A stretch of DNA of 64,000 nt from a candidate division TA06 bacterium (GCA_004376575.1 SOJN01000148.1:2-64001); one strand, 5' to 3'; positions 2,260 through 36,757 are shown, counted from the first letter of the stretch. The notes: a model not told the origin generated them from the sequence alone. Numbers and translations: made by a program.

Positions 2260-2261
2260 GT

Positions 2262-8912: not shown

Positions 8913-8974
8913 GAACGACTCTCACAAAACCTTCATCCAAACAACCCCAGATTGGGAAAGGAGTAATCGAGGAA

Positions 8975-10219: not shown

Positions 10220-10225
10220 CGCCCG

Positions 10226-12586: not shown

Positions 12587-12597
12587 GGGGGAAAATC

Positions 12598-13344: not shown

Positions 13345-13351
13345 AAAACAG

Positions 13352-14557
13352 ATGTGCAGGAGGATAGCAATGGAACTGAGGGACGTAGTAATAGTGAGCG
13401 CTTGTAGAGCTCCGATGGGAAGGTTCGGAGGGACTTTGAAGAATATGGCTGCCTACGACGTAGGAGCTGTGGCGGTGAAGGAAGCACTCAAGAGAGCAAA
13501 GCTGAAGGGCGAACAGGTGGACGACGTCTTGCTCGGCTCTTGCAGACAAGCAGGAAATGGACCCAACCCTGCAAGAACTGCCGCGGTCAGAGGTGGAGTC
13601 CCCGCACAGGTACCTGTGATGACACTCAACATGGCGTGTCCCTCGGGCATGAGAGCGCTCGCGCAGGCCAGCCAGGCAATAAGGCTGGGAGACGCGAGCA
13701 CAATCCTTGTCGGTGGATTTGACTCTATGAGCACCATCCCCTATCTTCTGAAAGACGTGAGGTGGGCCGGGTTCAAGATGGGTGACAAAACACTTCTCGA
13801 TGGTTGGGCAGACTCTATAGATCCCCTCTGCGGGTTCGGAATGGGGATGACCGCGGAAAACGTTGCTGAGAAATACAAGATCACACGCGAAGAGCAGGAC
13901 AAGTTTGCCTATGAAAGCCATATGAAGGCGGCGAAAGCGCAGGACGAGGGATGGTTTAATGAAGAGATCGTGTCAATCGAGGTTCCTCAGAGAAAGGGTG
14001 ATCCCATCATCTTCGATAAGGACGAAACGATCAGGCGCGATACTTCGCTGGAGAAACTGGCCAAGCTTCGTGCTGTGTTCAAGAAGGACGGGTGCGTCAC
14101 TGCCGGGAATGCGTGCGCAATGTCAGACGGTGCGGCAGCTATGATTGTTATGTCGCGGCCGAAAGCAAAGGAACTTGGTCTCAAGCCGCTCTTTTCGATC
14201 GTTTCCTATGCGCAGACTGCTGTGGAACCAGAAACCATGGGAGAAGGGCCGGGGTTTGTCATCCCTATGGCACTCGAGCGGGCAGGGATGGAGCTAGGAG
14301 ACATGGATCTCATAGAGGTGAACGAAGCCTTTGCCGTTCAGATTCTGGCCAATGAAAAGAAACTCAACTGGGACCGCACCAAGCTGAACGTTCATGGTGG
14401 AGCGATAGCCCTTGGTCACCCGACTGGGATAAGTGGTGCACGGATCATTGTTACTCTATATCATGCGCTGAAGCAGAGAAACAAGGAGCACGGCATCGCG
14501 GCAATCTGCGGAGGCGGCGGCGTCACCATGGCCACTGTGATCCGCAGAGAAAACTGA
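13352..14557 (+). CDS. Acetyl-CoA acetyltransferase (thiolase II)
   Basis: 401 aa. VVIVSACRAPMGRFGG N-terminus, NEAFAVQ, GGAIALGHPTGISG, CGGGGVTMA. Confidence 0.9.
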   Translation: MCRRIAMELRDVVIVSACRAPMGRFGGTLKNMAAYDVGAVAVKEALKRAKLKGEQVDDVLLGSCRQAGNGPNPARTAAVRGGVPAQVPVMTLNMACPSGMRALAQASQAIRLGDASTILVGGFDSMSTIPYLLKDVRWAGFKMGDKTLLDGWADSIDPLCGFGMGMTAENVAEKYKITREEQDKFAYESHMKAAKAQDEGWFNEEIVSIEVPQRKGDPIIFDKDETIRRDTSLEKLAKLRAVFKKDGCVTAGNACAMSDGAAAMIVMSRPKAKELGLKPLFSIVSYAQTAVEPETMGEGPGFVIPMALERAGMELGDMDLIEVNEAFAVQILANEKKLNWDRTKLNVHGGAIALGHPTGISGARIIVTLYHALKQRNKEHGIAAICGGGGVTMATVIRREN

Positions 14558-14630
14558 TTTGAATTCCTTCGACACAAGAACCAGGGCCTGTCTTCTGCGA
14601 GGGGCCTTCTCATTTCCTTCATCATTGACC

Positions 14631-14878
14631 CAGATTGCTTCGCTATCGCTGACCCTTGTCCTCCCTCGGCTCACGCCGATGAAGGACCAAACATGCCTCG
14701 TCTTTTCTCTGGAAAAGCCGGACCTTTTTGGCTCGCAATGACAATTGTCTTTCGGTACGAATGGAGCGTGGGCGCGGAAGCCGCGCCCCTACTTGCCTTG
14801 CGGGAAGTTACGAAGAACAAAAGAAGAGCTTGTCGTTGCGAGACCTGGGCCAACCAGGCCGAAGCAATCTGGCACAAG
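14631..14878. repeat. Intergenic hairpin repeats (family B: GATTGCTTCG...CGCAA(T/C)G; GC-rich hairpin GGCGCGGAAGCCGCGCC)
   Basis: cagattgcttcgctatcgct (14631-14650) and ccagattgcttcggcc...tctcgcaacg in inverted orientation (14835-14872). Perfect 7-bp stem at 14771-14787. Related copies at 29891-29921 and 63915-63972. Confidence 0.6.
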
Positions 14879-14965
14879 CAGATCCTTCGACTCCGTCCTT
14901 CGGACTCTACTCAGGACGAAAAATGACTCATGCCATCAAGCGATGGCATGGCCCTTTTTCGTTTT

Positions 14966-15475
14966 CTATTTTCCGGCGGCGGTGGGGCTGGGTTGTGTAC
15001 CGGGCCATTCAGTCGATGCCGGTTTCTCCTTCGGTTGAGTGTACAGTTCCACCGTATTCCCCATTGGGTCCATCACGCTGAAACCCCAATAACTATCCTG
15101 TCGCCATTCGGGCTTATCCTTGAAAGTCCTTACATCTGCAGAGTTCAGTCGATCGACCACCCCGGCAAACATTTCTTCGGGGATATGTATGCCCCACGAG
15201 GTCATCTCAAGCGTTCCACCCTCGTAGCCGGGCTGCACTGTCCACTCTTCGAGCACCGGGAGCTTCTTGTCTGCACGGAAGAACATCATTTCGAATCCTT
15301 CACTCTTGTAGACAAGCCAACCCCATTTCTTCTCATTCCGGAATGATCCCTGCTTCAGGCCTATCAGATCTGTGTAGAAGTGACGCATGCTCTGCACATC
15401 ATTGCACATATTAAAGATGAAACGGATGTTGATATCAGGCTTTCTAGTTGCCTTTTTTTCTTCCGCGTTCTCCAT
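14966..15475 (-). CDS. VOC (glyoxalase/bleomycin-resistance/dioxygenase) family protein
   Basis: 169 aa with a glyoxalase-like domain (…NDVQSMRHFYTDLIGL…). Confidence 0.55.
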   Translation of the reverse strand: MENAEEKKATRKPDINIRFIFNMCNDVQSMRHFYTDLIGLKQGSFRNEKKWGWLVYKSEGFEMMFFRADKKLPVLEEWTVQPGYEGGTLEMTSWGIHIPEEMFAGVVDRLNSADVRTFKDKPEWRQDSYWGFSVMDPMGNTVELYTQPKEKPASTEWPGTQPSPTAAGK

Positions 15476-20390: not shown

Positions 20391-20450
20391 TCCTGGACTC
20401 GGGGGACAGCCCCCGTGTATCTCGCTTTGCGAGAGACGGGGCAGGCATGG
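20391..20450. repeat. Intergenic repeat family A (A2 sub-element: CCCCGTGTATCTCGCTTTGCGAGAGACGGGGCAGGCATGG)
   Basis: Imperfect palindrome. Near-identical copies at 21611-21650 and, reverse-complemented, at 30170-30219. Confidence 0.65.
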
Positions 20451-20637
20451 ATTTTTTGGACTTTTGACCATCTGTCTCATCGGGCCGGGGCGGGGTGTGG
20501 ATTTTCGATCTTCTATTTCCATCCGTCCTGGTTCTTAGCGGTTACCGCGAAAATGTAAAAGTGTCACGCCTGGCACCCGGGTTTGATGGGAAGTAAGGGG
20601 CGTATTGGGCGATAAGCTAAAAACTTGCAGTTTTCTC

Positions 20638-20666
20638 TTGACAGACTTCGCGAAGTAGCCTATATT
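20638..20666 (+). promoter_or_regulatory. Sigma70-like promoter TTGACA-17-TATATT; the spacer holds the perfect palindrome CTTCGCGAAG, and direct repeats TGGTTACCG x2 lie downstream
   Basis: Consensus hexamers with 17-nt spacing about 170 nt upstream of the regulator gene. The 10-bp palindrome overlaps the spacer. Tandem GGTTACCG repeats are at 20691-20715. Confidence 0.35.
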
Positions 20667-20837
20667 TTGTATGAGAGTTTATGGTTACCGATATTGGTTA
20701 CCGGGAAGCCCAAGACCCTGAAACCACGAGATTACACGAGATTAACACAGAGAAACCTTTATCCTAGGAACAAAACCAGAATATGAGAAATCTTGTAGTA
20801 ATCTGTGAAATCTGTGGTTTCAGATTGTGGGGTTGAG

Positions 20838-21506
20838 ATGACTGAAAACGACGTAGAGGCCAAGATATTTGGGGTTCTGCAGAAGTCTGCTGAGGGGTTG
20901 CAGAGTGAGGAGATCGCCGCCAATCTGGGTCTCACCCGCCACACTGTTGCCAAATACCTTGAGGTCCTCAGAGCCAAGAACAAAATCCACTACAGAAAGG
21001 TGGGCAGAACGAAGCTCTGGAAGACCCTCTTCGCAGACATCCACATCCGCTCGCTTGAAAAAGGCGACGTAGACACGATACTTGAAATAATGTCGAACAT
21101 CGGTCGTCCGACAGCAGGAGAAGAAGAAGAATCTCTATCATACTTAAGAGAGACGGTGGAGCGTCACATAGAGAGAAATGAACCCTTGATGAACCTTGGC
21201 GCAGAGCTTGACAAGAGACTGGTCGGCTTCGTCATGGGTGAGATAAGGGCGTGGGAATTCGGCCAAAGGGAGAAGACGGGCTGGATAAAGGTTCTTGGTG
21301 TTGATCCAGACTATCAGGGAATGGGAGCCGGGAGGAAGCTTGGAGAGGCACTCCTTTCCAACTTCAAAGCGAGCGGAGTAGCCAGGGTCAGGACGCTGGT
21401 TAACTGGTACGAAGGTGACCTTCTCTCCTACTTCAGGACTCTCGGTTTCAACACGCTGAACATCATACCGCTTGAAACAAAGGTCACCACGAGGGATCGA
21501 ATATGA
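20838..21506 (+). CDS. Winged-helix (MarR/ArsR-like) DNA-binding domain fused to a GNAT acetyltransferase domain; candidate regulator of the adjacent bzd operon
   Basis: N-terminal ...QSEEIAANLGLTRHTVAKYLEVLRAKNKIHYRKVGRTKLWK resembles a wHTH. C-terminal GNAT-like region. Start chosen at MTENDV (20838). Confidence 0.55.
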   Translation: MTENDVEAKIFGVLQKSAEGLQSEEIAANLGLTRHTVAKYLEVLRAKNKIHYRKVGRTKLWKTLFADIHIRSLEKGDVDTILEIMSNIGRPTAGEEEESLSYLRETVERHIERNEPLMNLGAELDKRLVGFVMGEIRAWEFGQREKTGWIKVLGVDPDYQGMGAGRKLGEALLSNFKASGVARVRTLVNWYEGDLLSYFRTLGFNTLNIIPLETKVTTRDRI

Positions 21507-21561
21507 AGCAGATTCTTCGGCCTTCGACAAACTCCCCTCGATGCTCTCCCCTCGACTTCTC

Positions 21562-21650
21562 TCGGGAGACCGTGAAACGGCCGCTCGTAAAACGAGCCGG
21601 GCGGGCAGGCCCCGTGTATCTTGCTTCGCGAGAAACGGGGCAGGCAGGCC
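21562..21650. repeat. Intergenic repeat family A, full tandem copy (A1 CTCGGGAGACCGTGAAACGGCCGCTCGTAAAACGAGCCGGGCGGGCAGG + A2 CCCCGTGTATCTTGCTTCGCGAGAAACGGGGCAGGCAGG)
   Basis: A1 is nearly identical to 70-117. A2 matches 20412-20450 and the reverse complement of 30170-30219. Both halves are imperfect palindromes. Confidence 0.7.
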
Positions 21651-21694
21651 TCAGAATGACACGGATGAAGTAGGACAGAACCTCTGACAGGAGA

Positions 21695-22825
21695 ATGAAG
21701 ATGAAGGAGATGTTCAAGGAGTTTTACGAAGCCAGGCATGAGTACGCCAAGGAATGGAAGAAGAAGAACCGCGGCAAAGTAATGGGTTATTTCTGTACAT
21801 ACGTGCCAGAGGAGATGCTTTACGCCGCGGGAGTTCTTCCGGTCCGAATTCTGGGAAGCCATGAACCCCAGGACCTGACCGAACCTCACATCTTTGGGAT
21901 GTTCTGCCCGTTTTGCAGAGACTGTCTGGCTCAGGGTTTGAAGGGAAGGTTCGACTACCTGGATGGTATAATGATAGCTCAGTCCTGCCTGCACGTGAGG
22001 CAGGCCTACACTTCGTGGGACCTTCACATACCTACAGAGTACTCATACTATCTCTCCACACCTCATCACGTTCAGTCTCCTCGGGCTATCCCCTACCTGG
22101 CAGGTGAACTGGAGGATTTCAAAAAGTCACTCGAAGGGTGGCTGGGCAAGAAGATAACTGATGCGAACCTTGACAAAGGTATCCAAATCATGAACACAAA
22201 CAGATCGCTCCTGCGAGAACTATACGAGCTCAGAAAACAGGAAGCGCCGCCTCTCACAGGGCTCGATGCGATGTATGCTGTTGTTTCAGGCCAGATGATA
22301 GACAAGGTTGAACACAACCGCATACTTGAGGACACATTGAAGAGTCTAAAGAACAAACAGCCTGAAAGGCCAACAGGAAGCAGACTGATGCTAATAGGCA
22401 GCGAAGATGACGATACAGGCTTTATAGAGATGGTGGAATCCCTGGGAGCCACTTTTGTAATAGATGACCACTGCACTGGTTCGCGCTATATCTGGGAAGA
22501 CGTAAAACCTAACGGAGACAGATTGACTGCAATAGCAGAAAGATACGTCAAACGAGTACCATGCCCCACAAAAGATTGGCCGCTGAGAAACCGCCTTCCT
22601 CACATTCTCAAACTTGCAAAGGAGTACAAGGTGGAAGGTGCAGTCATCGCTCAACAGAAGTTCTGTGACCCGCACGAACTGGACATACCCGCAATCAAAA
22701 AGCTGCTCGAAGAGAATAGCATACCCACCTTATTCCTTGAGTTGGATGTGACTGTTCCCATTGGACAGTTCAAAGTCCGGGTTGAAGCATTCCTGGAGAT
22801 GCTGAGCGAAGAAGATCTATTCTGA
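21695..22825 (+). CDS. bzdN: Benzoyl-CoA reductase (class I, Bzd-type) gamma subunit, BcrC/BadD/BzdN-like (HgdA/B family)
   Basis: 376 aa, HgdAB/BcrBC family (…[21 protein letters not shown]…). First gene of the 4-gene set gamma-beta-delta-alpha followed by ferredoxin, as in the bzdNOPQM order. Confidence 0.7.
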
Positions 22826-22835
22826 GGAGGATAAG

Positions 22836-24143
22836 ATGGCGAAGTATGAAACTGAACGGCTGAAGTGCTGGAACAAGGCGAAAGAGTTGAGAAAGAATTT
22901 CTACGAAGATTACGCGAAAGCCCATGAAAAGGGTGGCATAAGATGGGCTGGAGGTGCGTGGTCCATAGGTTCGATTCCGGCCGGACTGGGAAGAGACGTC
23001 TACCCGATCACTTCTGAGCCGTACGCTGCCAGCATTGCATTTGACAGACCCTTCTCAGAAGAATGCCTCGCGGCGATCGAAAAAGAAGGGTATGCCAGGG
23101 ACCTGTGTTCATACATGCGCAACTACTGGGGAAGTGTTTTGTTGAACAAGTACGCCTTTGGCGGAGAGTTTCCCACTCCTGACTTCATCTGGCAGGATCA
23201 TATATGCTGCAGCCACGCAAAATGGTACCAGGTGGTGAAGGACATAGAAGAAAAGGACATACCCTACTTCTGCCTTGATGTGGCTGTTGGTCCTTACAGC
23301 GAGTTGAATGAGAACAAATTGAACTATGTCGTGGGCCAACTGCACGACGCCATCGAATGGATGGAGAAGCTGACAGGCCGGAACTACCAAGACGAACTGC
23401 TCATAGAGGCGGTCAATGATGAGTGCAGATCAACATCTGTCTGGGCTGAGGTGTGCGCGCTGAACAAGGCAATACCAGCACCTCTCGATGAGAAATCCAT
23501 GTATTCGCTTTATGTCCTGGGCACTCTCAAAAAGCACTCCAAGGATATTGCAGACTTCTACGAGGAGTTGAGAGATGAGGTGAAGGACAGAGTTGACCGG
23601 GGTATTGCCGCTGTTGGAAATGAACGGTGCCGGGTGATGACTGACACTCAGCCTCCCTGGGGATTCTTGAAGATATTTAGATATATGGAAAAGTTCGGTT
23701 GCATCTCTGTCGGTTCTCTCTACACCTTTGGCCTCATCGGAATGTGGGAAGACAAACCTGACGGGACGTGGGGGCCCAAGACGACCCCGCAGCAAAAGGG
23801 GATTGAAATCAAGGACAGGGATGAGGCCTTGAGAATCATTGCTGAGTGGAATCTGTCTAAGCCAGAGTGGCAGCACTTCTATCATCCAAAGCACAAGACC
23901 GACATGATGGTGAGAATCGCCAAAGAGTGGAAGCTGGACGGGGTGATGCTTCACTACAACAGGGGATGCGAGGGATTGAGCATTGGGATAGCAGAGAACA
24001 GACTTGGCATACAGGAAGCTGGATTCCCTGTCATGACCTTCGAAGGAAACATGGGAGATGAAAGAGAGTTCGATGAGGCGAAAACCGTGGGTAGAATCGA
24101 CACATTCATGGAAAGTCTCGGATTCAGCAAGGATGAAGAGTAG
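22836..24143 (+). CDS. bzdO: Benzoyl-CoA reductase beta subunit, BcrB/BadE/BzdO-like
   Basis: 435 aa, HgdAB/BcrBC family (…[19 protein letters not shown]…[13 protein letters not shown]…). Size matches BcrB/BzdO. Confidence 0.7.
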
Positions 24144-24149
24144 GGGGAT

Positions 24150-24929
24150 ATGATGGTGACAGCAGGAATAGACGTAGGCGCGAAGAGCGTGAAAGTGGTA
24201 TTACTTGAGAGTGGCAAGGTGACGTCCAGGAGTCTCAAAACAATTGGCCTCAACACTGAGGCGGCCATTAACGAAGCCTTTGAAAGCGCCCTCTCCAACA
24301 ACGGAATCAAACGTGAAGAGATCTCAAAGATCATAGCCACAGGCGCGGGCAGAAAAGAGGTGAAGTTTGCCGACGGAGAATTGACAGAAGTCGGTGCCTC
24401 GGCAAAAGGTGCCCACCATCTCCTCGACTCGGCCCGCACTGTGATAGACATTGGAGCTGAGGAAGGTCGGGCCATAAAGGTAAACGAAAAAGGTAAGGTG
24501 GCTGACTTCGCCATAAACGAGAAATGTGCCGCGGGCGCAGGCGCCTTCACTGAAGCGATGTCAAGAGCTCTGGAGGTTGACCTGGAAGACTTCGGAAAGC
24601 TCTCGCTGAAGTCCCAGAAGGCCATTCCCATGAACGCACAGTGTGCTGTGTTTGCAGAAAGCGAAGTCGTTTCTCTTATCCACGCCAAGACCCGCAAAGA
24701 GGACATAGCCCGGGCAGTCCACGATGCGATAGCAGACAGGATAGTTTCTATGGCAAGACGTGTCGGTATCGCAAAGGACGTTATCGTGGTAGGAGGAGTT
24801 GCAAGAAACATTGGTTTCATAGATTCACTGAAACGCACTCTCGAGACTGACGTGGTTGTGCCAGAATACCCTGAGTACGCAGCAGCACTTGGAACCGCCC
24901 TACATGCGGCAGAAACCGGAGGTCAATAA
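24150..24929 (+). CDS. bzdP: Benzoyl-CoA reductase ATPase subunit (delta, BcrD/BadG/BzdP-like; activase-family)
   Basis: 259 aa. GIDVGAKSVK N-terminus and KCAAGAGAF motif. ASKHA ATPase of the HgdC family. Confidence 0.75.
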   Translation: MMVTAGIDVGAKSVKVVLLESGKVTSRSLKTIGLNTEAAINEAFESALSNNGIKREEISKIIATGAGRKEVKFADGELTEVGASAKGAHHLLDSARTVIDIGAEEGRAIKVNEKGKVADFAINEKCAAGAGAFTEAMSRALEVDLEDFGKLSLKSQKAIPMNAQCAVFAESEVVSLIHAKTRKEDIARAVHDAIADRIVSMARRVGIAKDVIVVGGVARNIGFIDSLKRTLETDVVVPEYPEYAAALGTALHAAETGGQ

Positions 24930-25810
24930 TGTCGCAGGATTTCTGGAGATGGACTGAATACAGAAAGACTATGCCTGATGTTGACTGGAAGAAGGCTCAA
25001 ATCCTGACGGCAGGTGTCGATGTGGGATCGGTTAGCTCTCAGGCGGTCGTCATGGCGGACGGGAAGCTCTTCGCGTACAGCAACATGAGGACAGGTTCAG
25101 ACAGTCCGGAGTCTGCTCAAAAAGCGATGGACTGGGCCCTTGAAGAGACAGGACTCACCCTGGATAAAATTCAGTTCACTGTGGGTACAGGATACGGCAG
25201 GGTGAACGTCCCCTTCGCCAATAGGGCGATTACTGAGATTGCATGCCACGCAAGGGGAGCAAACTATTTGTACGGCTCTTCAGTCCGGACTGTTCTCGAC
25301 ATGGGCGGTCAGGACTGCAAGGCGATTCGCTGCGATGAGAGAGGCAAGGTGACAAACTTTCTCATGAACGACAAGTGTGCCGCGGGAACCGGCCGCGGCA
25401 TGGAAGTTTTTGCTGAGCTCCTGCAGGTACCCATAACCGAGATCGGTCAGATGTCTCTGGACATAGACGAAGAACCAGAGCCGGTATCATCGACATGCGT
25501 CGTATTTGCTAAATCTGAGGCGACGGGTCTGCTGAGGGAAGGATGGCCCAAGAACAAGGTGATAGCAGCTTACTGTTCAGCAATGGCTCACCGGATTGTC
25601 ACGCTCCTGGAGAGAATCGGGATTGAAAAGGATTTCGCCATTACCGGTGGCATCGCAAAAAATCCAGGTGTGGTGACACGGTTAAACAAGGAACTGGGCA
25701 TCGAACCACTCAAGACCGAATATGACACGCAAACCGCAGGGGCCATCGGCGGCGCCCTTTTTGGATACGCACTGGTGAAGAAAGGCAAAGCAAAGGCAGG
25801 TGCGAGTTGA
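24929..25810 (+). CDS. bzdQ: Benzoyl-CoA reductase ATPase subunit (alpha, BcrA/BadF/BzdQ-like)
   Basis: 293 aa. GVDVGSVSSQ, IACHARG, KCAAGTGRG motifs. The second, non-identical activase-type ATPase implies a heterodimeric ATPase module as in BCR, not a homodimeric dehydratase activator. Confidence 0.75.
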   Translation: MSQDFWRWTEYRKTMPDVDWKKAQILTAGVDVGSVSSQAVVMADGKLFAYSNMRTGSDSPESAQKAMDWALEETGLTLDKIQFTVGTGYGRVNVPFANRAITEIACHARGANYLYGSSVRTVLDMGGQDCKAIRCDERGKVTNFLMNDKCAAGTGRGMEVFAELLQVPITEIGQMSLDIDEEPEPVSSTCVVFAKSEATGLLREGWPKNKVIAAYCSAMAHRIVTLLERIGIEKDFAITGGIAKNPGVVTRLNKELGIEPLKTEYDTQTAGAIGGALFGYALVKKGKAKAGAS

Positions 25811-26094
25811 TAGCAAACTACGGGTACATGGACGGCAGCGGCCAGTACTTCATAAAGATAGACTCAGACAAGTGCGATGGATGTGGAGACTGTGTGACCG
25901 CGTGCCCGGCTGGGGTCCTTGAGGTGGGTGAAGATGAGAACGACCCATTCCGTGAGGAGCCTGTGGTCAAAGTCACTGAGGATCAACGAAAGAAGATCAA
26001 ATACTCATGCGGGCCCTGTAAGCCTGTTGCCAACAGACCTCCTCTCCCCTGTATGGCAGCCTGCAAGCCCGGAGCGATCGAACACTCCTGGTAA
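25807..26094 (+). CDS. bzdM: 2x[4Fe-4S] ferredoxin, Alvin-like with extended second-cluster loop (BCR electron donor, BzdM/Fdx-like)
   Basis: 95 aa. Cluster 1 CDGCGDCVTACP. Cluster 2 CGPC-x10-C-x3-CKP. TTG start overlaps the bzdQ stop. Confidence 0.75.
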   Translation: MIANYGYMDGSGQYFIKIDSDKCDGCGDCVTACPAGVLEVGEDENDPFREEPVVKVTEDQRKKIKYSCGPCKPVANRPPLPCMAACKPGAIEHSW

Positions 26095-26109
26095 GAGGGG
26101 ACTCCAAAG

Positions 26110-28605
26110 TTGAAACTGGTCATAGACGGTCAGACCGTAGAGGCTAGACCGGAAAGCACAATTCTTGAAGCAGCTCTAGAGACACAGATATATATCCCTG
26201 CCATCTGTTACCATCCGGATTTGCCGACATTCTCAAAGGCTGAACCCTCGGGGGGGATATTTGGGGGAGTTGAGAAAATCACTTCAGAAGAAAATGCAAA
26301 ATACCAAGGGTGCGGTCTTTGCATTGTTGAGGTGGATTGGAGAAGTGGTCCAGTCCTTTCATGTGAAACAGAAGCAGAAGACGGTATGGTCATCAAAACA
26401 AATACAGAGAAGATCAAGGACAAGAGACAGGAAGCTCTGGCCAGGATACTCAAAGACCACCCAAGAGCCTGTCTCCTCTGCACTCAAAAAGAAGGTTGTT
26501 CCAGGGAACCCTGTTCAGAGGACGTCCCTATGGAAGAGAGGTGCTGTCCATTACTGGGCAAGTGTGAGCTCGAGAAGATCGCAGACTTCGTCGGAGTCCC
26601 CCAGAACCCGGGCAAGTATAAGTCTCTGAGAATCCCGTTGCTGGACGACGAGCCGTTGTTCAAGCGAGATTACAACCTCTGCATTGGCTGCATGAGGTGT
26701 GTCCGCGCATGCAAGGACCTGAGAGGCGTTGAAGCGCTTGGATATGTAATCAAAAACGGCACCACATACCTGGGCACCATCAATGGATCGAAGCTCAAGG
26801 ACGCCGGGTGCAGGTTCTGCGGAGCCTGCGTTGAAGTGTGTCCCACAGGTGCACTGACCGACATCAAGCCTTTCACCCTTTCCGAGAAAGAGAAAGTTCT
26901 TGTCCCCTGCAGGGACGCTTGTCCGGCAGGAATAGACGTACCGGCGTATGTCCGGGCAATAGGCAGAGGCGAAACGGACAGAGCCCTCTCGATTATTTAC
27001 GAAAGCGCTCCTCTTCCAGGAATTCTGGGCATGGTTTGCCACCATCCATGCGAAGATGTCTGCAGGAGGAAAGAGATAGAAGAACCCATCTCCATATGCG
27101 GCATCAAACGATTTGCTGCAGAAAATGGAAAGCTGACGCACGCCTCTCCCCTGCTTCCCTCTACCGGCAAAAAGGTCGCGGTGATAGGTTCTGGTCCAGC
27201 AGGGCTCAGTACTGCCCATTTCCTGAAGCTGAAAGGCCATCAAGTTACTGTTTTCGAAAGAGAAGAGAAACCAGGAGGAATCCTAAGATACGGCATTCCC
27301 GCGTACAGGCTGCCTGATGCAGTCCTGGACAGCGAGATATCAACTGTGCTGGACGGAATTGAATTGAAGACTGAAGCTGCTCTTGGTCAAGATTTCCAGC
27401 TGAAGGACCTGGCAGACGAGGGATTTGACTGCGTGTTTCTCTGCACCGGAGCCGGAGAGAGTAAGAAACTTGAGATACCGGGCTCAGACAGTGAAGGTGT
27501 ATATTGGGGCCTTGACTTCTTGAAGGAGATTAACAAGGGTGACAAACCAGCTCTCGGCGAGAACGTCGCGGTCATAGGCGGAGGAAATGTCGCCTTTGAC
27601 GTTGCGCTGTGCTGCCTCAGGCTGGGAGTTCGACAGGTGACCGTCGTCTGCCTGGAGTGTAAATCTGAGATGCCCGCTTTCAATAAAGAGATAGATACTG
27701 CCAAAGAGGAAGCGGTCAGAATAATGAACTCCTGGGGACCAAAAGAGATAGAGTGCGCGGATGGCAAAGTCAAAGGAGTCTTCCTGAAGAAATGCACAGA
27801 GGTGTTCGACAAGAAAGGGAACTTCTCTCCTCAATACGACGAATCAGTCGTGGAACACATCGATGCTGACAATGTGATTCTTTCCATAGGCCAGGAGCCA
27901 GATGTGGATCTCATCTCTCTCCCTGGCATGCCAGAACACGATTCTTCAAGACTCCTTAGAGCAGAAGATACGAGAACAAACATCCCTACAGTGTTCGCTG
28001 GCGGGGATGCCACAAGAGGTCCTTCATCGGTAATTGAGGCTGTTGCAGACGGTAGGAAGGCCGCCGACGAAATCGACAGATTCCTGGGAGGCAGGGGCCC
28101 CGTTCGTACTTCCGGGCCTCAGCCCGCGAACCCTGAGATTGGTCGGGACGAACAGTTCTGTGAGCGTCTCAGAGTGGCAATGCCATGCGCTGATCCGTAC
28201 GAGAGAGGAAAATCGTTCACCCCCATAGAACTTGGATATGGTGAGAAAGAGGCAGGCATCGAAGCAAACCGTTGCCTTCAATGCGACCTGAGACTACAGA
28301 TTACTGAAGCTACTCTTCCTCCTGAGAAGTGGATACTTCTTGATCGTGAAGCTTTGAATGAAATCCCTGAAAAGGAAGGCGTGTACCAGCTGGCAGGCGA
28401 GAAGAAGATGGTGACAAAGATAGCCGGAACTCAGAATCTTCTACAATCACTCACGGCCGAACTGGACAGTGAAAATGGGAAGTACTTCTGGTTTGAGGAG
28501 GACCCGATGTACACGAAACGCGAAAGTGAGCTCATACAACAACATCTCCAGAAGTACGGTGAACTGCCAGGAGCAGGTGAAGAAGACCTGGATGACCTCT
28601 TCTAG
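26110..28605 (+). CDS. Multi-cluster iron-sulfur flavoprotein: NuoG-type 2Fe-2S/His-Cys3 4Fe-4S N-terminus + 2x[4Fe-4S] ferredoxin domain + GltD/SudA-type NAD(P)H:FAD oxidoreductase + C-terminal extension; candidate NAD(P)H:ferredoxin oxidoreductase for BCR
   Basis: 831 aa. HPRACLLCTQKEGC (H-x3-C-x2-C-x5-C). CIGCMRCVRAC and CRFCGACVEVCP. GltD-like C-x3-CP...VCHHPCEDVCRR. Dinucleotide folds KKVAVIGSGPAGL and VAVIGGGNVAFD. C-terminal ~170 aa includes an extra CLQC pair. Confidence 0.7.
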   Translation: MKLVIDGQTVEARPESTILEAALETQIYIPAICYHPDLPTFSKAEPSGGIFGGVEKITSEENAKYQGCGLCIVEVDWRSGPVLSCETEAEDGMVIKTNTEKIKDKRQEALARILKDHPRACLLCTQKEGCSREPCSEDVPMEERCCPLLGKCELEKIADFVGVPQNPGKYKSLRIPLLDDEPLFKRDYNLCIGCMRCVRACKDLRGVEALGYVIKNGTTYLGTINGSKLKDAGCRFCGACVEVCPTGALTDIKPFTLSEKEKVLVPCRDACPAGIDVPAYVRAIGRGETDRALSIIYESAPLPGILGMVCHHPCEDVCRRKEIEEPISICGIKRFAAENGKLTHASPLLPSTGKKVAVIGSGPAGLSTAHFLKLKGHQVTVFEREEKPGGILRYGIPAYRLPDAVLDSEISTVLDGIELKTEAALGQDFQLKDLADEGFDCVFLCTGAGESKKLEIPGSDSEGVYWGLDFLKEINKGDKPALGENVAVIGGGNVAFDVALCCLRLGVRQVTVVCLECKSEMPAFNKEIDTAKEEAVRIMNSWGPKEIECADGKVKGVFLKKCTEVFDKKGNFSPQYDESVVEHIDADNVILSIGQEPDVDLISLPGMPEHDSSRLLRAEDTRTNIPTVFAGGDATRGPSSVIEAVADGRKAADEIDRFLGGRGPVRTSGPQPANPEIGRDEQFCERLRVAMPCADPYERGKSFTPIELGYGEKEAGIEANRCLQCDLRLQITEATLPPEKWILLDREALNEIPEKEGVYQLAGEKKMVTKIAGTQNLLQSLTAELDSENGKYFWFEEDPMYTKRESELIQQHLQKYGELPGAGEEDLDDLF

Positions 28606-28615
28606 GTGAACCGTT

Positions 28616-29770
28616 ATGCATCGTATTGAGAAACTGCAAAAGACCCTGGCCGACCACAGTCTAGTTGCGGCGTTTCTTCTTTACCACCGTGACGTTTACT
28701 ACTATGCAGGTACTGCAAGACCAGCGTCTCTTGTTGTGACTCCGGATGATGCAGTCTTGTTCGTCAGAAGGGGAGTTGATTGGCTCGGCGACGAACCGAA
28801 ACTGAGTGATGTCCGTGAGGGAGGCTTAGGTTCAATCCTTGATTGGCTGAAGGCCAAAGGTATACAGACGGGTAACGCAGGAATCGAGATGGATATCGTA
28901 CCTGCAGACATGTACGTGAAGCTGAAGATGCTCCTCCCCGGTTTGGAGTTTGTGGATGTTTCCACGTTCATAATCGAGCAAAGGCTCATTAAAGACAAGG
29001 ATGAGATAAAATCAATAAGGGGAGCATGCCGAATGGTCGAACAATCACACAAACACCTTCCCGATATCCTGAAAGAAGGGATTACTGAGCTTGAACTCTC
29101 AGCAGAGCTCGAATCGGTAGCTCGCAGGCACGGCCACGAAACCTTCGCAGTACTCAGGAAGAGGTTGGAGACGGAGATGGGCTACGCACTCATTCTCTCT
29201 GGTGAAAGCACCAGAGCGATCGGTGGTTATGGACAGGTCGTAACAGGAAAAGGGTTGAGTCCTGCTTTTCCGTATGGCCCTTCGCTTAGAAAGGTGAAAC
29301 GAGGGGATGTGGTCGTGTTTGACATCGCAGGCCTGAGCCAGGGATACCACTCAGATCTGGCAAGAACCTACTGTCTGGGGAAAGCGTCTGATGAGATGCT
29401 GGAAGCCCATGCAGCACTTGTTGCCATCCAGTCGGCAATGCTGGACGCTGCAAAGCCCGGGGTACCGGCAAATCAGATATACAAAACTGCAATCAAGAAA
29501 GCAGAAGCAATGGGTTGGGCCGATTACTTTCAGGGACACGGTAAAGAGAAAGGGACTTTTGTCGGGCATGGACTGGGTCTTGAGATAGACGAGCCGCCGC
29601 TTCTGAGCCCCAAAGATGGAACTGTGATCGAAGAAAACATGACATTCACCACAGAGCTGTTCATCGTGCATCCTGAGTTTGGCGAGGTTAAGCTGGAGGA
29701 CACTCTGCTCATGACGAAAGACGGGCCGGAACTTTTGACGACATTGGAACGGACAATAACTGAAATATGA
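28616..29770 (+). CDS. M24-family metallopeptidase (Xaa-Pro aminopeptidase/creatinase-like)
   Basis: 384 aa. Pita-bread fold motifs HGLGLEIDEPP, ...NMTFTTE.... Start is 11 nt after the upstream stop, so it is likely co-transcribed with the bzd operon. Confidence 0.8.
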   Translation: MHRIEKLQKTLADHSLVAAFLLYHRDVYYYAGTARPASLVVTPDDAVLFVRRGVDWLGDEPKLSDVREGGLGSILDWLKAKGIQTGNAGIEMDIVPADMYVKLKMLLPGLEFVDVSTFIIEQRLIKDKDEIKSIRGACRMVEQSHKHLPDILKEGITELELSAELESVARRHGHETFAVLRKRLETEMGYALILSGESTRAIGGYGQVVTGKGLSPAFPYGPSLRKVKRGDVVVFDIAGLSQGYHSDLARTYCLGKASDEMLEAHAALVAIQSAMLDAAKPGVPANQIYKTAIKKAEAMGWADYFQGHGKEKGTFVGHGLGLEIDEPPLLSPKDGTVIEENMTFTTELFIVHPEFGEVKLEDTLLMTKDGPELLTTLERTITEI

Positions 29771-29848
29771 ACTACAAACTGCAAACTGCGAAAGAAATAA
29801 CCGAAGTACAAAGCGAAAAAGACCCGTGGTGTCGTTGGAGACCACGAT

Positions 29849-30219
29849 GTATTTTTCGTCCTGAGCGGGAGCGAAGGATCCCCTGAGCCCGAGATTGCTT
29901 CGCTATCGCTCGCAATGACAGTACCTCTATTCCGTGTAGCCCAGGAAGTTCAGAGTTTGGAAGCTGACGACTGACAACTGATAGCTTCTGCTGTGTCGTA
30001 CAGCCTACAGCGAGCCAAATAGGTCCAGCTGAAAAAGACCCACACTGTCGATAGACAGGGTAAGGTATTTTTCATCCTGAGGGAACGCCGAAGGACCTCC
30101 TGAATGCTTCTATGTCACTGGATGAGACATATTTGGTCCTTCATCGGCGTGAGCCGATGGAGGAGAAGCCATGCCTGCCGCGTTTCTCGTGAAGCGAGAT
30201 ACACGGGGCCTGCCCCGCC
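29849..30219. repeat. Repeat-dense intergenic spacer: two GTATTTTTC(G/A)TCCTGAG...GAAGGA elements (29849-29925, 30065-30110), a GATTGCTTCGCTATCGCTCGCAATGAC hairpin, GTACAGCCT(A/G)CA...AATAGG motifs, and an inverted family-A2 copy (30170-30219)
   Basis: Direct sequence comparison. 30170-30219 is the reverse complement of the A2 elements at 20412-20450 and 21611-21650. 29891-29921 matches 14631-14655. Confidence 0.65.
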
Positions 30220-30465: not shown

Positions 30466-31995
30466 ATGAGAAAACTGCCAGAAAACGAATATGTAGCCTT
30501 GACGACTCTCAGCCGACTGGAAAGGCCAGCACCTTTTGACAGCCTGGTTGCTCAGTCTGGTATGGACCAATCCAAACTAATGGCCGCTGCCATATCCCTC
30601 AAGGAGCAGGACCTTATAGTAATCCAGGAGGAGGCAGGAACTCTCATTTCCCTTGCTGACAATGGGAAGATATATGCTGAGCAACTCTTCCCGGAGAGGA
30701 GAGCCCTGAAAGCCATCCAGGATGCCGGAGGAAAGGTGAAGATCTCTACTCTCGCCCAACTCATAGATATACCGGATCTCGATTCCAGAAGAATCGTAAA
30801 GTGGCTTTCCCAGAAGGGCTGGTGTGCAAAAGAAGAGGACAACCTCGTAGTAACGGACAAGGGAAAGCAAGCAGCCAAAAAAAAGGGCCAGGACGAAATG
30901 CTTGTTGATGTGCTTTCCCAGAAAGGCACTGCTGACATCAAGTCCTTGAAGGAGAATGGCATTGATGTTGAGGCCGCCCAGCGACTTCTCAAAGGAAGAA
31001 CCCGAATCGTTAAGGTAAGATCGAAGAAGCTGAGACTTGTGAACCTCACAGAGAAAGGCAAGAAACTAGTATCGGAAGGGATCGAACCGGAAAAGCAAGC
31101 TACCACACTTACCTATGAGATGCTGGCAACAGGCAAGTGGCGCGAAGTCAGTTTGAAAAGCTATGACGTGAGTCTCCCAGGTGCTGTCACCTACCCTGGC
31201 AAAAGCCATCCTTTGAGAAGAATCATAGACGAGGCCCGCCAGGTCTTCCTGGAGATGGGTTTCACCGAGATAGTCTCGCCTTACGTGGACTCTTCCTTCT
31301 GGGTATTTGACGCACTCTTCCAACCCCAGGATCACCCCGCAAGGGAGATGCAGGACACGTTTTACATGTCCGCTCCCAGGCGATCGAAGCTTCCTCCGAA
31401 GAAGTTTGTCGAACCGGTTAAAGCCACTCACCAGAACGGCGGAAAAACTGGGAGCACAGGCTGGGGGTACAAGTGGGACATAGAAAAAGCAAGGAGAAAC
31501 GTACTCAGGACACACACCACAGCAACGACCATCAGATACCTGGCAGCACATCCTGAGCCGCCCCAGAAGGTTTTCAACATCGGCAGGAATTTCAGAAGAG
31601 AGAAGATCACTTTCAAGCATCTCATAGAGTTCTACCAGGTGGATGGAATAGTGATCGACGAAAAGGCGAGTCTGTCCACTTTGCTTGGGACCCTGGCTGA
31701 ATTCTATAAGAAAATCGGATTCCCAAAAGTCGTGTTCAGGCCGTCGTTCTTCCCTTACACAGAACCGAGCGTTGAGGCCTTTGCCTGGCTTGAAGCCAAA
31801 GATGCCTGGATCGAACTTGGAGGAGCTGGCATCTTCAGAGCCGAGGTTACCCGACCTCTTAACTGCCACGTCCCCGTTCTGGCCTGGGGTCTGAGTATTG
31901 AAAGAATCGCCATGATGAGATTTGGCCTGAGTGACATAAGGAAATTGTACTGGTCCGACATAGACTGGTTGAGGGAGGCGGAGCTATGCCGGTAA
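30466..31995 (+). CDS. pheS: Phenylalanine--tRNA ligase alpha subunit, archaeal/eukaryal type
   Basis: 509 aa (bacterial PheS is ~340). Signature HPL...MGFTEI...FWVFDALFQPQDHPARE...DTFY of archaeal/eukaryotic cytosolic PheRS-alpha. Class II motifs FRREKITF and GAGIFRAEV. Confidence 0.85.
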   Translation: MRKLPENEYVALTTLSRLERPAPFDSLVAQSGMDQSKLMAAAISLKEQDLIVIQEEAGTLISLADNGKIYAEQLFPERRALKAIQDAGGKVKISTLAQLIDIPDLDSRRIVKWLSQKGWCAKEEDNLVVTDKGKQAAKKKGQDEMLVDVLSQKGTADIKSLKENGIDVEAAQRLLKGRTRIVKVRSKKLRLVNLTEKGKKLVSEGIEPEKQATTLTYEMLATGKWREVSLKSYDVSLPGAVTYPGKSHPLRRIIDEARQVFLEMGFTEIVSPYVDSSFWVFDALFQPQDHPAREMQDTFYMSAPRRSKLPPKKFVEPVKATHQNGGKTGSTGWGYKWDIEKARRNVLRTHTTATTIRYLAAHPEPPQKVFNIGRNFRREKITFKHLIEFYQVDGIVIDEKASLSTLLGTLAEFYKKIGFPKVVFRPSFFPYTEPSVEAFAWLEAKDAWIELGGAGIFRAEVTRPLNCHVPVLAWGLSIERIAMMRFGLSDIRKLYWSDIDWLREAELCR

Positions 31996-33776
31996 TGGGA
32001 ATTCCGCTTGACGCCCTCTACAGGCTCGTTAAGAAAAAGATCGAGAAGAAAGAGCTGTTCGCTCTCCTCACCAGTCTGGGCTGTGATGTGGAGGGCTACT
32101 TCGAGGTCGAGCGATTCAAATGTACAAGATGCGGTGAGATAGTCGAACTCACATCCCAGGAAGACTCGCTAGGTGAATGCTCTTCCTGCGGTGTGGAGTT
32201 TGAGCCGGGGAAAACCATGCTCAGCATAGGTATGAGCGAAGTTGTCAGAATGGAGCTTCTACCAGCGAGGCCTGACATGTTCGACGTGGGCGGCCTGGCC
32301 AGAGCCATACGGGGATACCTGGGTCTTGAGGTTGGCATGCCGCGTTATCCGCTGCAGCCGTCGAACATGCTTGTCAAGGTGGCCAAATCAGTGAAGGGCG
32401 TAAGGCCCTGCATCGCCTGTGCTGTCGCCAGGGGAATGAAGCTCGACTACGAAACGATAAAGGCAGTTATGAAGATGCAGGAGAATCTCCACTGGGCCCT
32501 TGGCAGAGATAGAAGAAAAGCATCAATCGGAGTCTATGATCTCTCATCCCTGAGACCCAATTTTGTATACACAGCCTATGGCAAGAAAGAGATGAAGTTT
32601 GTGCCACTCGGGGGAATGCCCGGAGGCAGCACCGAGCCGACAACTCTGGAGAATATTCTTGAGCGCCATCCTAAGGGGATGGCATACAAACATCTCCTGG
32701 AAGACTATCAAGTCTACCCCATTCTCATTGACTCGGCAGACCAGGTTCTGTCCATGCCGCCCATTATCAACAGCGAGGAGACTAGAGCGGGAATTGAAAC
32801 AGAAGACCTGTTCGTAGATGTGACCGGTCACGACAGGACAAGCGTGGAAAGGACCCTCAATGTTTTTGTGTGTTCGCTCGCGGAATTGGGCGCCAGGATT
32901 GAAACCGTCAGAATCGCCGATACTACCGAAGAGCTGCGCACCCCCAATCTTGAATCAAGAGAGTCTATCCTGGTTTCCGAGCACGCCTCCTCTTTGATAG
33001 GAATCGATATTCCTCCTGACGATTGTGTCAGGCTTCTGAAGAAGATGCGATTTGATGCTTTCACGTCAGAAGAAAAGATACATGTGAGCATACCTCCCTT
33101 CAGGACTGACATCATGCACGAGTACGATCTGATAGAAGATATTGCTATTGCCTATGGCTATCACAACATAAAGCCTGCTCTCATTCCAACCATGACAATC
33201 GGCGCACAAAGGCCCCTGGAGAGAACTTCCGCACGGCTCAGAAACTGCATGCTGGGCCTCGGATTCTTGGAAGTGGTCACGACTCTGCTTTCTAATCCCC
33301 AGAAGAACTACGGTCTTTTGCAGAGAGAAGATGACAACAGGGCACCGAAGATAGAGAACCCCTCAACAGTTGAACATACAATTCTGAGGACCCACCTCAT
33401 CTCAGGTCTTCTGGAGATGTTCAAGATCAACAGAACCCGCAAGATGCCTCAGAAGACGTTCGAGCTTGGTGATGTTTCTCTCATAGAAGAAAAAGGAGAG
33501 ACCGGAACGGTTGATAAGAGAATTCTCGCCGGTGCAATCATGGATCCAAAGACTGGATTTTCAGAGATAAAATCGTGTGTCGCGGCTGTTATGAGAGAAA
33601 CAGGCAGAGATTTTGACCTGCGCCCTGAAAATGATCCTTCCTTTATCAAGGCCAGGTGTGCGGGAATATACCTGAAAGATTCGAAGATAGGAATATTGGG
33701 GGAGATTCACCCACAGGTTCTTGAGAACTTCGAAATAGTACAACCTGTCTCCCTTTTCCACATGGCAGCTGAGTAG
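31986..33776 (+). CDS. pheT: Phenylalanine--tRNA ligase beta subunit, archaeal/eukaryal type (with a Cys4 zinc-ribbon insert)
   Basis: 596 aa (bacterial PheT is ~800). Overlaps the pheS stop. B3/B4-like and B5 regions. CTRCGEIVEL...CSSCG zinc ribbon near the N-terminus. Confidence 0.8.
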   Translation: MPVMGIPLDALYRLVKKKIEKKELFALLTSLGCDVEGYFEVERFKCTRCGEIVELTSQEDSLGECSSCGVEFEPGKTMLSIGMSEVVRMELLPARPDMFDVGGLARAIRGYLGLEVGMPRYPLQPSNMLVKVAKSVKGVRPCIACAVARGMKLDYETIKAVMKMQENLHWALGRDRRKASIGVYDLSSLRPNFVYTAYGKKEMKFVPLGGMPGGSTEPTTLENILERHPKGMAYKHLLEDYQVYPILIDSADQVLSMPPIINSEETRAGIETEDLFVDVTGHDRTSVERTLNVFVCSLAELGARIETVRIADTTEELRTPNLESRESILVSEHASSLIGIDIPPDDCVRLLKKMRFDAFTSEEKIHVSIPPFRTDIMHEYDLIEDIAIAYGYHNIKPALIPTMTIGAQRPLERTSARLRNCMLGLGFLEVVTTLLSNPQKNYGLLQREDDNRAPKIENPSTVEHTILRTHLISGLLEMFKINRTRKMPQKTFELGDVSLIEEKGETGTVDKRILAGAIMDPKTGFSEIKSCVAAVMRETGRDFDLRPENDPSFIKARCAGIYLKDSKIGILGEIHPQVLENFEIVQPVSLFHMAAE

Positions 33777-35902: not shown

Positions 35903-36757
35903 TCAAATCCTGCCTACAACAAGAGCCACGAGGCCGGCGACCATGTCCATTTTGAGCAACGTAGACGCCCGGCTTGTGCTCATCCAACTCCTGCGAGCTA
36001 TCAAGGAAGCAACGATAACTGCCACGACCAGATCGACACCAACCAGAACAAATATCAGATAGAGCGCTCCGTAGAGACCAAACACAAACGGCAACGGTGT
36101 CACCAATATGAGCAAGGCGAAAACCGCTGCAGAAAGGAGAACCCCTGCTCGTTCACCGAACAGAACAGGGAAGGTCCTTGCTTGCACACTTCTATCTCCC
36201 TTCACGTCTGCAACATCCTTCACTATTTCTCTGCCCAGATGAAAGAGGAAGGCAAACGCAGCAGGGAACAGTGCTCCCACAGGATTTCTGACCGCCACAC
36301 CTCCATAGATGAAAGCGAGTGCGGTAAGCATGCTGACCAGGAGGTTCCCCCACAACCCCTGCCTCTTCAACCACACGGCATAAGCAACCAGCAGCGCACA
36401 GCAAGAAATGGCCATCAATAACGCGGAGAAACTTATCAGCCAGGAGAGTAGGATGCCCAGCGAGAAGAGTAATACGCCAATAATAGAAGCAGCTCTACGG
36501 GTGAGCAGCCCGGAGGGTATAGGCCTTTTCGGATTGTTGATGGAATCAGTCTCTGAGTCAGACACGTCGTTTATTGCGTTTCCGGCACCAAGAATCATTC
36601 CCGCAGATACGCATGCCAGAAGAACCTTCAACGCCAATAAGGTGCCGGAAAGGTAGGACCCGATTGCAACAGATATACCTACGATCAACACATTGACAGG
36701 CCTGATTATGCCCAAGCAGCCCCTGATTCTGTCAGCAAACCTGAGGTCGTTTCTCAT
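35903..36757 (-). CDS. UbiA-family aromatic prenyltransferase
   Basis: 284 aa, ~8 TM segments, Asp-rich NAINDVSDSETD motif. Confidence 0.7.
   Translation of the reverse strand: MRNDLRFADRIRGCLGIIRPVNVLIVGISVAIGSYLSGTLLALKVLLACVSAGMILGAGNAINDVSDSETDSINNPKRPIPSGLLTRRAASIIGVLLFSLGILLSWLISFSALLMAISCCALLVAYAVWLKRQGLWGNLLVSMLTALAFIYGGVAVRNPVGALFPAAFAFLFHLGREIVKDVADVKGDRSVQARTFPVLFGERAGVLLSAAVFALLILVTPLPFVFGLYGALYLIFVLVGVDLVVAVIVASLIARRSWMSTSRASTLLKMDMVAGLVALVVGRI

Follow-up and report, generated by a model that had tools for sequence, protein, structure and literature searches.

A probable Bzd-type class I benzoyl-CoA reductase operon of a candidate division TA06 bacterium, including genes for a dedicated ferredoxin and a BzdV-like ferredoxin-reductase candidate

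Class I benzoyl-CoA reductases (BCRs) consume two ATP per aromatic ring, and the textbook division assigns class I enzymes to facultative and class II enzymes to obligate anaerobes. The present analysis concerns 64,000 nucleotides of the genome of an uncultured candidate division TA06 sediment bacterium (GCA_004376575.1 SOJN01000148.1:2-64001; hereafter the window, with positions counted from its first letter). At positions 21695-29770 of its plus strand lies a complete operon that very probably encodes a class I BCR of the Bzd type, as a long-resident chromosomal cassette of an already documented environmental Bzd clade. Class I bcr genes were reported in 12 genomes, including TA06, Aminicenantes, Chloroflexi, Thermoplasmata and Bathyarchaeota, where their use by strict anaerobes was called surprising and an acetogenic lifestyle was offered as explanation; the two TA06 bins of that study have about 50% GC, as does the window (Dong et al. 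2019, PMC6472368). Sets of bzdNOPQ together with bzdM and bzdV were also described in deep-sea Chloroflexi (Sewell et al. 2017, PMC5736913) and in Asgard archaea, the Hermodarchaeota (Zhang et al. 2021, PMC8163825). The clusters of these three studies share with the window the enzyme type, the kind of host, the habitat and the ferredoxin/BzdV companions, and we found no substantive difference. In GenBank, the proteins of the window (TET43745.1 and neighbours, also present in GCA_030590645.1) already carry the name 'benzoyl-CoA reductase, bzd-type'. Therefore, the preliminary description of this DNA, which had suggested an unrecognised reservoir of ATP-dependent BCRs, was preceded on this point by the GenBank names and the three studies; the reservoir is large but recognised, and the operon itself is already known.

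Among the described systems, BzdNOPQ, BzdM and BzdV of Aromatoleum (Azoarcus) sp. CIB, a denitrifying betaproteobacterium, comprise the same subunits in the same N-O-P-Q-ferredoxin order, with identical FeS ligands, Glu65/His131 pair and benzoyl-CoA contacts. In strain CIB the bzdSTU genes lie between bzdM and bzdV, whereas in the window the BzdV-like gene directly follows the ferredoxin gene. Likewise, a BzdR-type regulator was not seen at the position which it occupies in strain CIB, a gene with acetyltransferase (GNAT) and helix-turn-helix (HTH) domains being found upstream instead, and Dch and Had are not adjacent to the cassette here. Before the BzdNO module was examined, no complete BZD-type BCR had been isolated and studied (Fuchs et al. 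2025, PMC11971306). BcrCBAD of Thauera aromatica and BadDEFG of Rhodopseudomonas palustris belong to the same BCR/2-hydroxyacyl-CoA dehydratase (HAD) radical-enzyme family and follow the same logic of an ATPase dimer and a catalytic dimer; the Thauera type forms a permanent heterotetramer, whereas a transient complex is predicted for the Bzd type (Fuchs et al. 2025, PMC11971306). The 3-methylbenzoyl-CoA reductase MbdONQP (PDB 9G87/9GAI) has the same four-subunit design within this family, with remote catalytic subunits. HadBC with its activator HadI (PDB 3O3M, 4EHT) shares the fold family, and HadB also shares with BzdO the coordination of a [4Fe-4S] cluster by three Cys and an open site. However, HadB has Ala where BzdO has His131, and the HadBC system lacks two distinct ATPases and the double-cubane ligand set. 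Apart from this type of enzyme, the [8Fe-9S] double cubane is reported only for the double-cubane cluster protein (DCCP), while HadB has a [4Fe-4S] cluster (Fuchs et al. 2025, PMC11971306).

The operon consists of seven co-directional open reading frames (ORFs) on the plus strand, which agree in position and size with the preliminary description. The gene bzdN (21695-22825, 376 aa, TIGR03190) encodes the predicted [8Fe-9S] double-cubane subunit of the catalytic dimer, and bzdO (22836-24143, 435 aa, TIGR03191) the predicted active-site subunit with an aqua-[4Fe-4S] cluster and the benzoyl-CoA pocket. They are followed by the genes of two different ATPases, one at the position of BzdP (24150-24929, 259 aa, identified by TIGR00241 and its position) and the other BzdQ (24929-25810, 293 aa, TIGR03192), predicted to be the two halves of the ATP-dependent electron-activating dimer. 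The next gene encodes a BzdM-like 2x[4Fe-4S] ferredoxin with Fer4 family matches (25807-26094, 95 aa from a TTG start), annotated in GenBank with 88 aa from an ATG start at 25828. A BzdV-like FeS flavoprotein (26110-28605, 831 aa), a putative NADPH:ferredoxin oxidoreductase according to its domains and a named homologue, and an M24 (Xaa-Pro peptidase/creatinase-like) hydrolase with Pfam Peptidase_M24 and Creatinase_N domains (28616-29770, 384 aa) complete the operon. As the preliminary description had claimed, both catalytic subunits, both ATPases and the ferredoxin were found, in the order of bzdNOPQM of Azoarcus sp. CIB. Its start/stop overlaps hold at the P/Q junction (1 nt) and, provided that the ferredoxin starts at TTG, at the Q/ferredoxin junction (4 nt), but not at the remaining junctions, where short gaps of 10, 6, 15 and 10 nt separate the genes. 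A single transcript is plausible for this arrangement. The M24 gene, placed 10 nt behind the BzdV-like gene at the end of the tightly packed run, is a lineage-specific passenger: it was present in none of 80 GTDB bzd loci, and in a TA06-lineage relative (locus L083) it lies between the BzdV-like gene and pheS.

Proteins were identified with NCBIfam equivalog hidden Markov models (HMMs) at the cut-off of each model, and by sequence comparison with the PDB, expressed in bits. BzdN matched TIGR03190 with 504 bits (cut-off 453.8), BzdO TIGR03191 with 698 bits (cut-off 448.6) and BzdQ TIGR03192 with 438 bits (cut-off 380.2), scores which lie far outside what chance would give. This is in agreement with the proposal of the preliminary description, namely a Bzd-type class I BCR operon in which a dedicated ferredoxin and a fused ferredoxin-reductase candidate, here found to be BzdV-like, are also encoded. 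The Thauera-type Bcr models (TIGR02259-02263) failed, with 54 bits for BcrB (cut-off 487), 157 for BcrC (421), 137 for BcrA (578) and 125 for BcrD (313), and the double-cubane model failed by a wide margin. Among the solved structures, BzdO scored 679 bits with 8S02_A, 108 with HadB and 50 with MbdO, and BzdN scored 498 bits with 8S02_B, 168 with HadC and 124 with MbdN. Global identity to the crystallised BzdNO of Aromatoleum sp. CIB (8S02) was 66% for BzdO and 58% for BzdN. The closest solved structure to BzdQ was MbdQ (205 bits). The 259-aa ATPase was recognised at a generic level only, by the activase domain model TIGR00241 (233 bits), with no BzdP-specific model among the matches; it scored 125 bits with the BcrD model versus 104 with BcrA, and had HadI (199 bits) as its closest solved structure. 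The BzdP of Azoarcus sp. CIB is itself named just 'CoA activase' by NCBI, and a 259-aa-type ATPase lies between bzdO and bzdQ in 69 loci. For the ferredoxin, the comparison with the PDB gave generic 4Fe-4S matches only, and no specific tie to the Thauera ferredoxin.

The residues of the catalytic dimer were compared with those listed for the 8S02 structure, in the numbering of Aromatoleum BzdNO (Fuchs et al. 2025, PMC11971306). BzdO keeps the ligands of the water-ligated [4Fe-4S] cluster (Cys95, Cys128 and Cys380) and the catalytic pair Glu65/His131. Trp46, Tyr97, Gln274, Tyr298, Leu302 and Leu383, which contact the ring and the thioester, are present as well. Overall, 17 of the 18 checked positions of BzdO are given as kept, the differences named being Ser44 to Gly and Thr125, a backbone contact only, to Asp. 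BzdN possesses all seven Cys of the [8Fe-9S] site, together with Arg53, Arg267, Arg290, His330, Ser239 and Gln324. In the alignment with 80 related loci the listed positions of BzdO are invariant, and one of the seven BzdN Cys is replaced by Ser in two of 75 sequences. Gly occupies the Ser44 position in all 81 environmental BzdO sequences (81/81), corresponding to residue 40 of the BzdO of the window (codon 22953-22955), and serves as a marker of this clade. In the crystal, Ser44 forms a hydrogen bond to the catalytic Glu65 and lies 3.6-4.0 Å from C3 of the ring (Fuchs et al. 2025, PMC11971306), and its change to Gly is the only notable active-site difference predicted by the alignment. Both ATPases retain the Cys pair expected for a bridging [4Fe-4S] cluster: the 259-aa ATPase contains only two Cys, C126 and C165, invariant in 70/70 homologues, and the cluster Cys C150 and C190 of BzdQ are invariant as well. 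The eight Cys of the ferredoxin (CxxCxxCxxxCP and CxxCx10CxxxC) are kept in 64-65 of 65 homologues.

If the enzyme works like its crystallised homologue of Aromatoleum, it would receive electrons from the BzdM-like ferredoxin at the [4Fe-4S] cluster bridging the BzdP and BzdQ ATPases, and ATP hydrolysis by these would lower the electron potential. From there the electrons would reach the water-ligated [4Fe-4S] cluster of BzdO by way of the [8Fe-9S] double cubane of BzdN, and at the BzdO cluster benzoyl-CoA would be converted to cyclohexa-1,5-diene-1-carbonyl-CoA. The BzdV-like flavoprotein would most likely recharge the ferredoxin with electrons from NAD(P)H, and Oah and the beta-oxidation genes located 8-14 kb upstream would open the ring and convert the product to acetyl-CoA. 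The genes present and their order, the protein families, the retained cofactor and active-site residues and the conservation of the cassette in different phyla are established here; activity, ATP coupling, electron donor and physiological substrate are all predicted from sequence. The 831-aa flavoprotein contains [2Fe-2S] and NuoG/HoxU-like [4Fe-4S] domains, a GltD/NfnL-like FAD-NAD(P)H domain and DUF7508, and 27 of its Cys are kept in at least 55 of 56 homologues. In related loci the ferredoxin gene always follows bzdQ, and in 55 loci the 831-aa gene comes after the ferredoxin gene. A full-length homologue from a Heimdallarchaeota genome (P0258, 47% identical) is named 'BzdV protein', and the literature on the Azoarcus sp. 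CIB cluster describes BzdV as a putative NADPH:ferredoxin oxidoreductase. Re-reduction of the ferredoxin from NAD(P)H is the most likely role predicted for the 831-aa protein.

The distribution of the cassette was surveyed with one genome per GTDB species, and details were obtained for the best 80 of 404 loci. A relative of BzdO was found in at least 404 species loci, with 71-85% identity among the best 80, which come from Elusimicrobia, Gemmatimonadota, Planctomycetota, Aminicenantes, KSB1, Zixibacteria RBG-1, Ignavibacteria, Bacteroidetes and others. Metagenomic BzdO matches also include Thermoplasmatota archaea. The order N-O-P-Q-ferredoxin-BzdV is conserved wherever enough DNA is present, and the cassette is reported for at least 404 species-level genomes. 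A quick neighbour-joining (NJ) distance tree was built from the best 80 loci with the taxonomy of the submitters, so that its mixing of phyla is only suggestive. In this tree Aromatoleum falls outside the environmental clade, the BzdO of the window forms a group with those of two genomes from groundwater that bear the label Elusimicrobia (84% identity), and lineage-coherent groups and split phyla are both present. Between phyla, BzdO identity is about 75% where PheT identity is only 45-50%, a contrast which fits an ancient transfer of the cassette, strong constraint, or both, as identity levels alone cannot separate purifying selection from transfer. The lateral acquisition suggested in the preliminary description is therefore not supported as a recent mobile insertion, while an ancient inter-phylum transfer of the cassette remains plausible from the NJ tree. 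Within the TA06 lineage, relative L083 encodes at the end of its contig a BzdV-like protein (64% identity), M24 (65%; L083 1971-3131), PheS (70.5%) and PheT (67.6%). The BzdV-M24-pheST order is thus kept at about 68-70% PheS/PheT identity, and therefore the cassette appears to have co-diverged with its housekeeping neighbours. Downstream of the operon, the window continues with pheST, hprK, rpoN, lptB, kds genes, pyrG, rpsA, ispH and murJ.

Further genes predicted to participate in the degradation of aromatic compounds are present upstream on the plus strand. The ring-opening hydrolase Oah (Oah/BamA; 7773-8912) matched TIGR03200 with 578 bits (cut-off 464), and is followed at 8909-14557 by lower-pathway and beta-oxidation genes for a thiolase (436 aa), a FadB-like dehydrogenase-hydratase (786 aa), a short-chain dehydrogenase/reductase (SDR, 248 aa) and a second thiolase (401 aa). 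Three further genes are located at 2262-7554. Two encode AMP-forming acyl-CoA ligases of 523 and 535 aa, candidates for substrate activation, and one encodes an ADP-forming acyl-CoA synthetase of 696 aa, a candidate for ATP recovery. The crotonase domain of the FadB-like protein gives generic matches only. This domain and the SDR (12598-13344) could serve as substitutes for the missing Dch and Had equivalogs. In many related loci (L011 439-2521, L014 4434-6340 and L020 4761-6700), an SDR 59-73% identical to that of the window directly follows Oah, so the SDR likely takes the place of the Zn-dependent Had dehydrogenase as a non-orthologous enzyme; in the window the thiolase and the FadB-like gene intervene between Oah and the SDR. 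Relatives possess a Dch-like crotonase 5' of bzdN (191 bits, cut-off 292), and in the Aminicenantes locus L011 genes similar to 4-hydroxybenzoyl-CoA reductase adjoin the cassette. The context is consistent with aromatic catabolism, and the window's own pathway is incomplete.

Directly 5' of bzdN lies the gene of the HTH and GNAT acetyltransferase fusion (20805-21506, plus strand, 233 aa), with a Pfam Acetyltransf_1 domain and weak HTH matches. The same gene occurs directly 5' of bzdN in an Elusimicrobia locus (L003) and in about 12 Aminicenantes or 'Eubacteriales' loci, with 54-61% identity. It could be a regulator of the cassette; in Rhodopseudomonas palustris the GNAT protein BadL is required for benzoate catabolism (PMC6191541). 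The only strong site of the promoter scan, a sigma-70-like site at 20638-20666, is located before the GNAT gene. The scan of the upstream spacer of bzdN for sigma-70 sites and terminators was uninformative, with terminator counts equal to the shuffled expectation.

Since the HGD-D and BcrAD_BadFG Pfam families are shared with 2-hydroxyacyl-CoA dehydratases, and since a peptidase-family gene ends the operon and a C1 peptidase lies upstream, the four subunits could also be taken for a 2-hydroxyacyl-CoA dehydratase and its activator in amino-acid fermentation, not an aromatic-ring reductase. We regard this as extremely improbable. The Had models stay far below their cut-offs while the Bzd equivalogs pass (HadB 135 bits against 750, HadC 185 against 700), so that the grouping with 2-hydroxyacyl-CoA dehydratases, which the preliminary description had set against its own proposal, was not found. 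Moreover, there are two different ATPases and not one homodimeric activator, BzdN retains the ligands of the [8Fe-9S] double cubane with their Arg/His environment, and the benzoyl-binding residues of BzdO are all kept, with Oah nearby. The dehydratase identity was rejected on HMM scores, PDB scores and cofactor ligands, and is effectively refuted. A Bzd-family reductase acting on a substituted or related aromatic acyl-CoA, for instance one formed from aromatic amino acids, which would make the environmental clade a distinct functional subtype, is also improbable, although less so. It would be favoured by the Gly that replaces the Ser44 of Aromatoleum throughout the clade, by the identities of 60-67% to Aromatoleum against 67-99% within the clade, by nearby ligases that score below the benzoate-CoA ligase cut-off, and by the 4-hydroxybenzoyl-CoA-reductase-like neighbours in L011. 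Nonetheless, all other residues lining the benzoyl ring and thioester are invariant, the methylbenzoyl-CoA reductase subunits MbdO and MbdN are distant at 50 and 124 bits, and the cut-off is exceeded by Oah, an enzyme for the unsubstituted ring product. Somewhat less improbable, and still doubtful, is the idea that the environmental clade forms a distinct and self-contained class I BCR subtype of strict anaerobes, supplied with electrons by an NfnA/StnC-like NADPH module, possibly with an unrecognised partner or bifurcation, and switched by acetylation as with BadL. The invariant Gly at the Ser44 position, the fixed ferredoxin and 831-aa module, and the GNAT-HTH gene often found upstream are the proposed marks of such a subtype. 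Some observations do weigh against a Bzd-type benzoyl-CoA reductase as proposed here. The 259-aa ATPase is assigned to BzdP by its position and generic family; neither AMP-forming ligase meets the benzoate-CoA ligase cut-off (the 535-aa ligase scored 242 bits with TIGR02262, cut-off 375); and no Dch (TIGR03189) or Had (TIGR03201) equivalog was present among the scanned ORFs of the window. For the 831-aa protein, a NAD(P)H:ferredoxin role is deduced from its domains and the name of a homologue. Kinetics or substrate range could also differ from Aromatoleum, because the hydrogen-bond partner of Glu65 there, Ser44, is Gly across the clade.

The role of the 831-aa protein and the history of the operon each have a competing explanation. 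The closest solved relatives of the protein are the NADPH-FAD modules of NfnA and StnC from bifurcating Bfu-type transhydrogenases (350-372 bits, against 145-165 for GltD), in which NADPH is oxidised at the FAD and the electrons are relayed via FeS clusters to a separate bifurcating core. NfnA of NfnABC (9BOV, 9N5U) and StnC (8OH5) share with the 831-aa protein a GltD/NfnL-like FAD-NAD(P)H domain, which carries two [4Fe-4S] clusters, and the [2Fe-2S]/[4Fe-4S] relay in one chain. The same type of FAD/FeS module is found in the annotation class of NADP-dependent formate dehydrogenase beta subunits, and homologues of the 831-aa protein carry the JGI label 'formate dehydrogenase beta subunit'. The protein might accordingly be the NADPH-input arm of an electron-bifurcating complex, in which such a module merely feeds electrons to the core, or might serve another partner such as a formate-dehydrogenase-type enzyme. 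This appears unlikely, given that neither the operon nor the conserved cassette includes a NuoE/NuoF-like core or a formate dehydrogenase catalytic gene, that the gene always comes after the ferredoxin gene, and that the literature treats Azoarcus BzdV as a putative NADPH:ferredoxin oxidoreductase. Unlike the NfnA/StnC class, the 831-aa protein has no formate-dehydrogenase-like domain or NuoEF-like partner genes, its relay domain is N-terminal and DUF7508 C-terminal, and its gene is always linked to the bzd ferredoxin. With regard to the history of the operon, the preliminary description had taken the flanking hairpin repeats as support for an accessory or mobile context. Such repeats do flank the operon, with hairpin modules resembling repetitive extragenic palindromes (REP-like) at 21561-21651, within the 188 nt that precede bzdN (folding energy -53.8 kcal/mol, with z -2.3), and further REP-like modules (I1-I4) at 29804-30216 (29804-29865 and 30121-30216) in the 695-nt spacer before pheS. 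However, their value as a sign of mobility is lost, since the same modules are dispersed in intergenic regions unrelated to the operon (69-118, 14625-14971 and 20401-20453), a further repeat pair being located at 56142-56314. The repeats form mosaic, GC-rich families with direct and inverted copies of 86-96% identity in the longer intergenic spacers, and had no family matches in Rfam. A recently acquired island bounded by repeats that mark a mobile element could find support in the inverted copies of one repeat at 21603-21651 and 30167-30215 (90% complementary), in the mixed phyla of the Bzd trees, and in BzdO identities of 72-80% between phyla with PheT identities of only about 45-50%, as in the Gemmatimonadota CP070758.1 (BzdO 79%, PheT 50%). 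We nevertheless hold it to be very improbable. Searches for integrase, transposase and tRNA genes found none, the operon does not stand out from the window in GC content, GC content at third codon positions (GC3), codon use or tetranucleotides (correlation 0.95, higher than for 91% of equal-sized chunks), and PLSDB (72,556 plasmids) yielded no BzdO match. In L083, BzdV, M24, PheS and PheT are 64-70% identical to those of the window, consistent with co-divergence. The mobile island was rejected on repeat mapping, tRNA and flank annotation, composition, plasmid search and lineage synteny, and the accessory or mobile context was abandoned with it, the repeats being dispersed, the composition native, the neighbours housekeeping genes and the BzdV-M24-pheST order kept in the relative. 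The cassette is, as judged from its sequence context, a long-standing chromosomal resident of the lineage and not a recent mobile insertion.

The host assignment of the preliminary description, a candidate-phylum bacterium far from the proteobacterial model organisms, is in agreement with TA06. Its type IX secretion system (T9SS) sorting domain was recovered on a 1639-aa protein (TIGR04183, 29 bits, cut-off 23), and its archaeal-type phenylalanyl-tRNA synthetase (PheRS) by the pheT_arch model TIGR00471 (533 bits, cut-off 283). The 1639-aa FG-GAP/Ig-like repeat protein (58415-63334, plus strand) contains an internal tandem duplication of about 1.6 kb with 73-79% identity. PheRS (30466-33776, plus strand) scored 152 bits with pheT_bact, and its homologues in WOR-3 and Gemmatimonadota are 45-50% identical. 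A UbiA-family prenyltransferase gene (35903-36757, minus strand), which adjoins uppP and has conserved counterparts in the lineage relatives L083-L085, has its best models in the archaeal geranylgeranylglycerol-phosphate-related type (NF009523, 229 bits, below the cut-off of 269). At 245-4352 on the plus strand the window also possesses a second BCR/HAD-family module, consisting of a HadB/alpha-like subunit (175 bits with 3O3M_A) without an adjacent beta-type partner, an activase and an ADP-forming acyl-CoA synthetase. At approximately 172-200, by this module, lies a promoter-like TTGACA-17-TAGTAT. The same trio occurs, with 47-67% identity, downstream of bzd clusters in Ignavibacteria and Bacteroidetes loci (for example L013, L026, L045 and L060).

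The presence of class I BCRs in energy-limited strict anaerobes contradicts the textbook division, a puzzle which has been in the literature since at least 2017-2019, TA06 included. The window is a clean and well-assembled example of this case, not a discovery. What the present analysis adds is that the residues of the 2025 BzdNO structure are invariant in at least 81 environmental enzymes of many phyla, except for one clade-wide change from Ser to Gly, together with a census of the cassette and evidence of its old chromosomal residency in the TA06 lineage. These results could help in selecting an environmental enzyme to be expressed.

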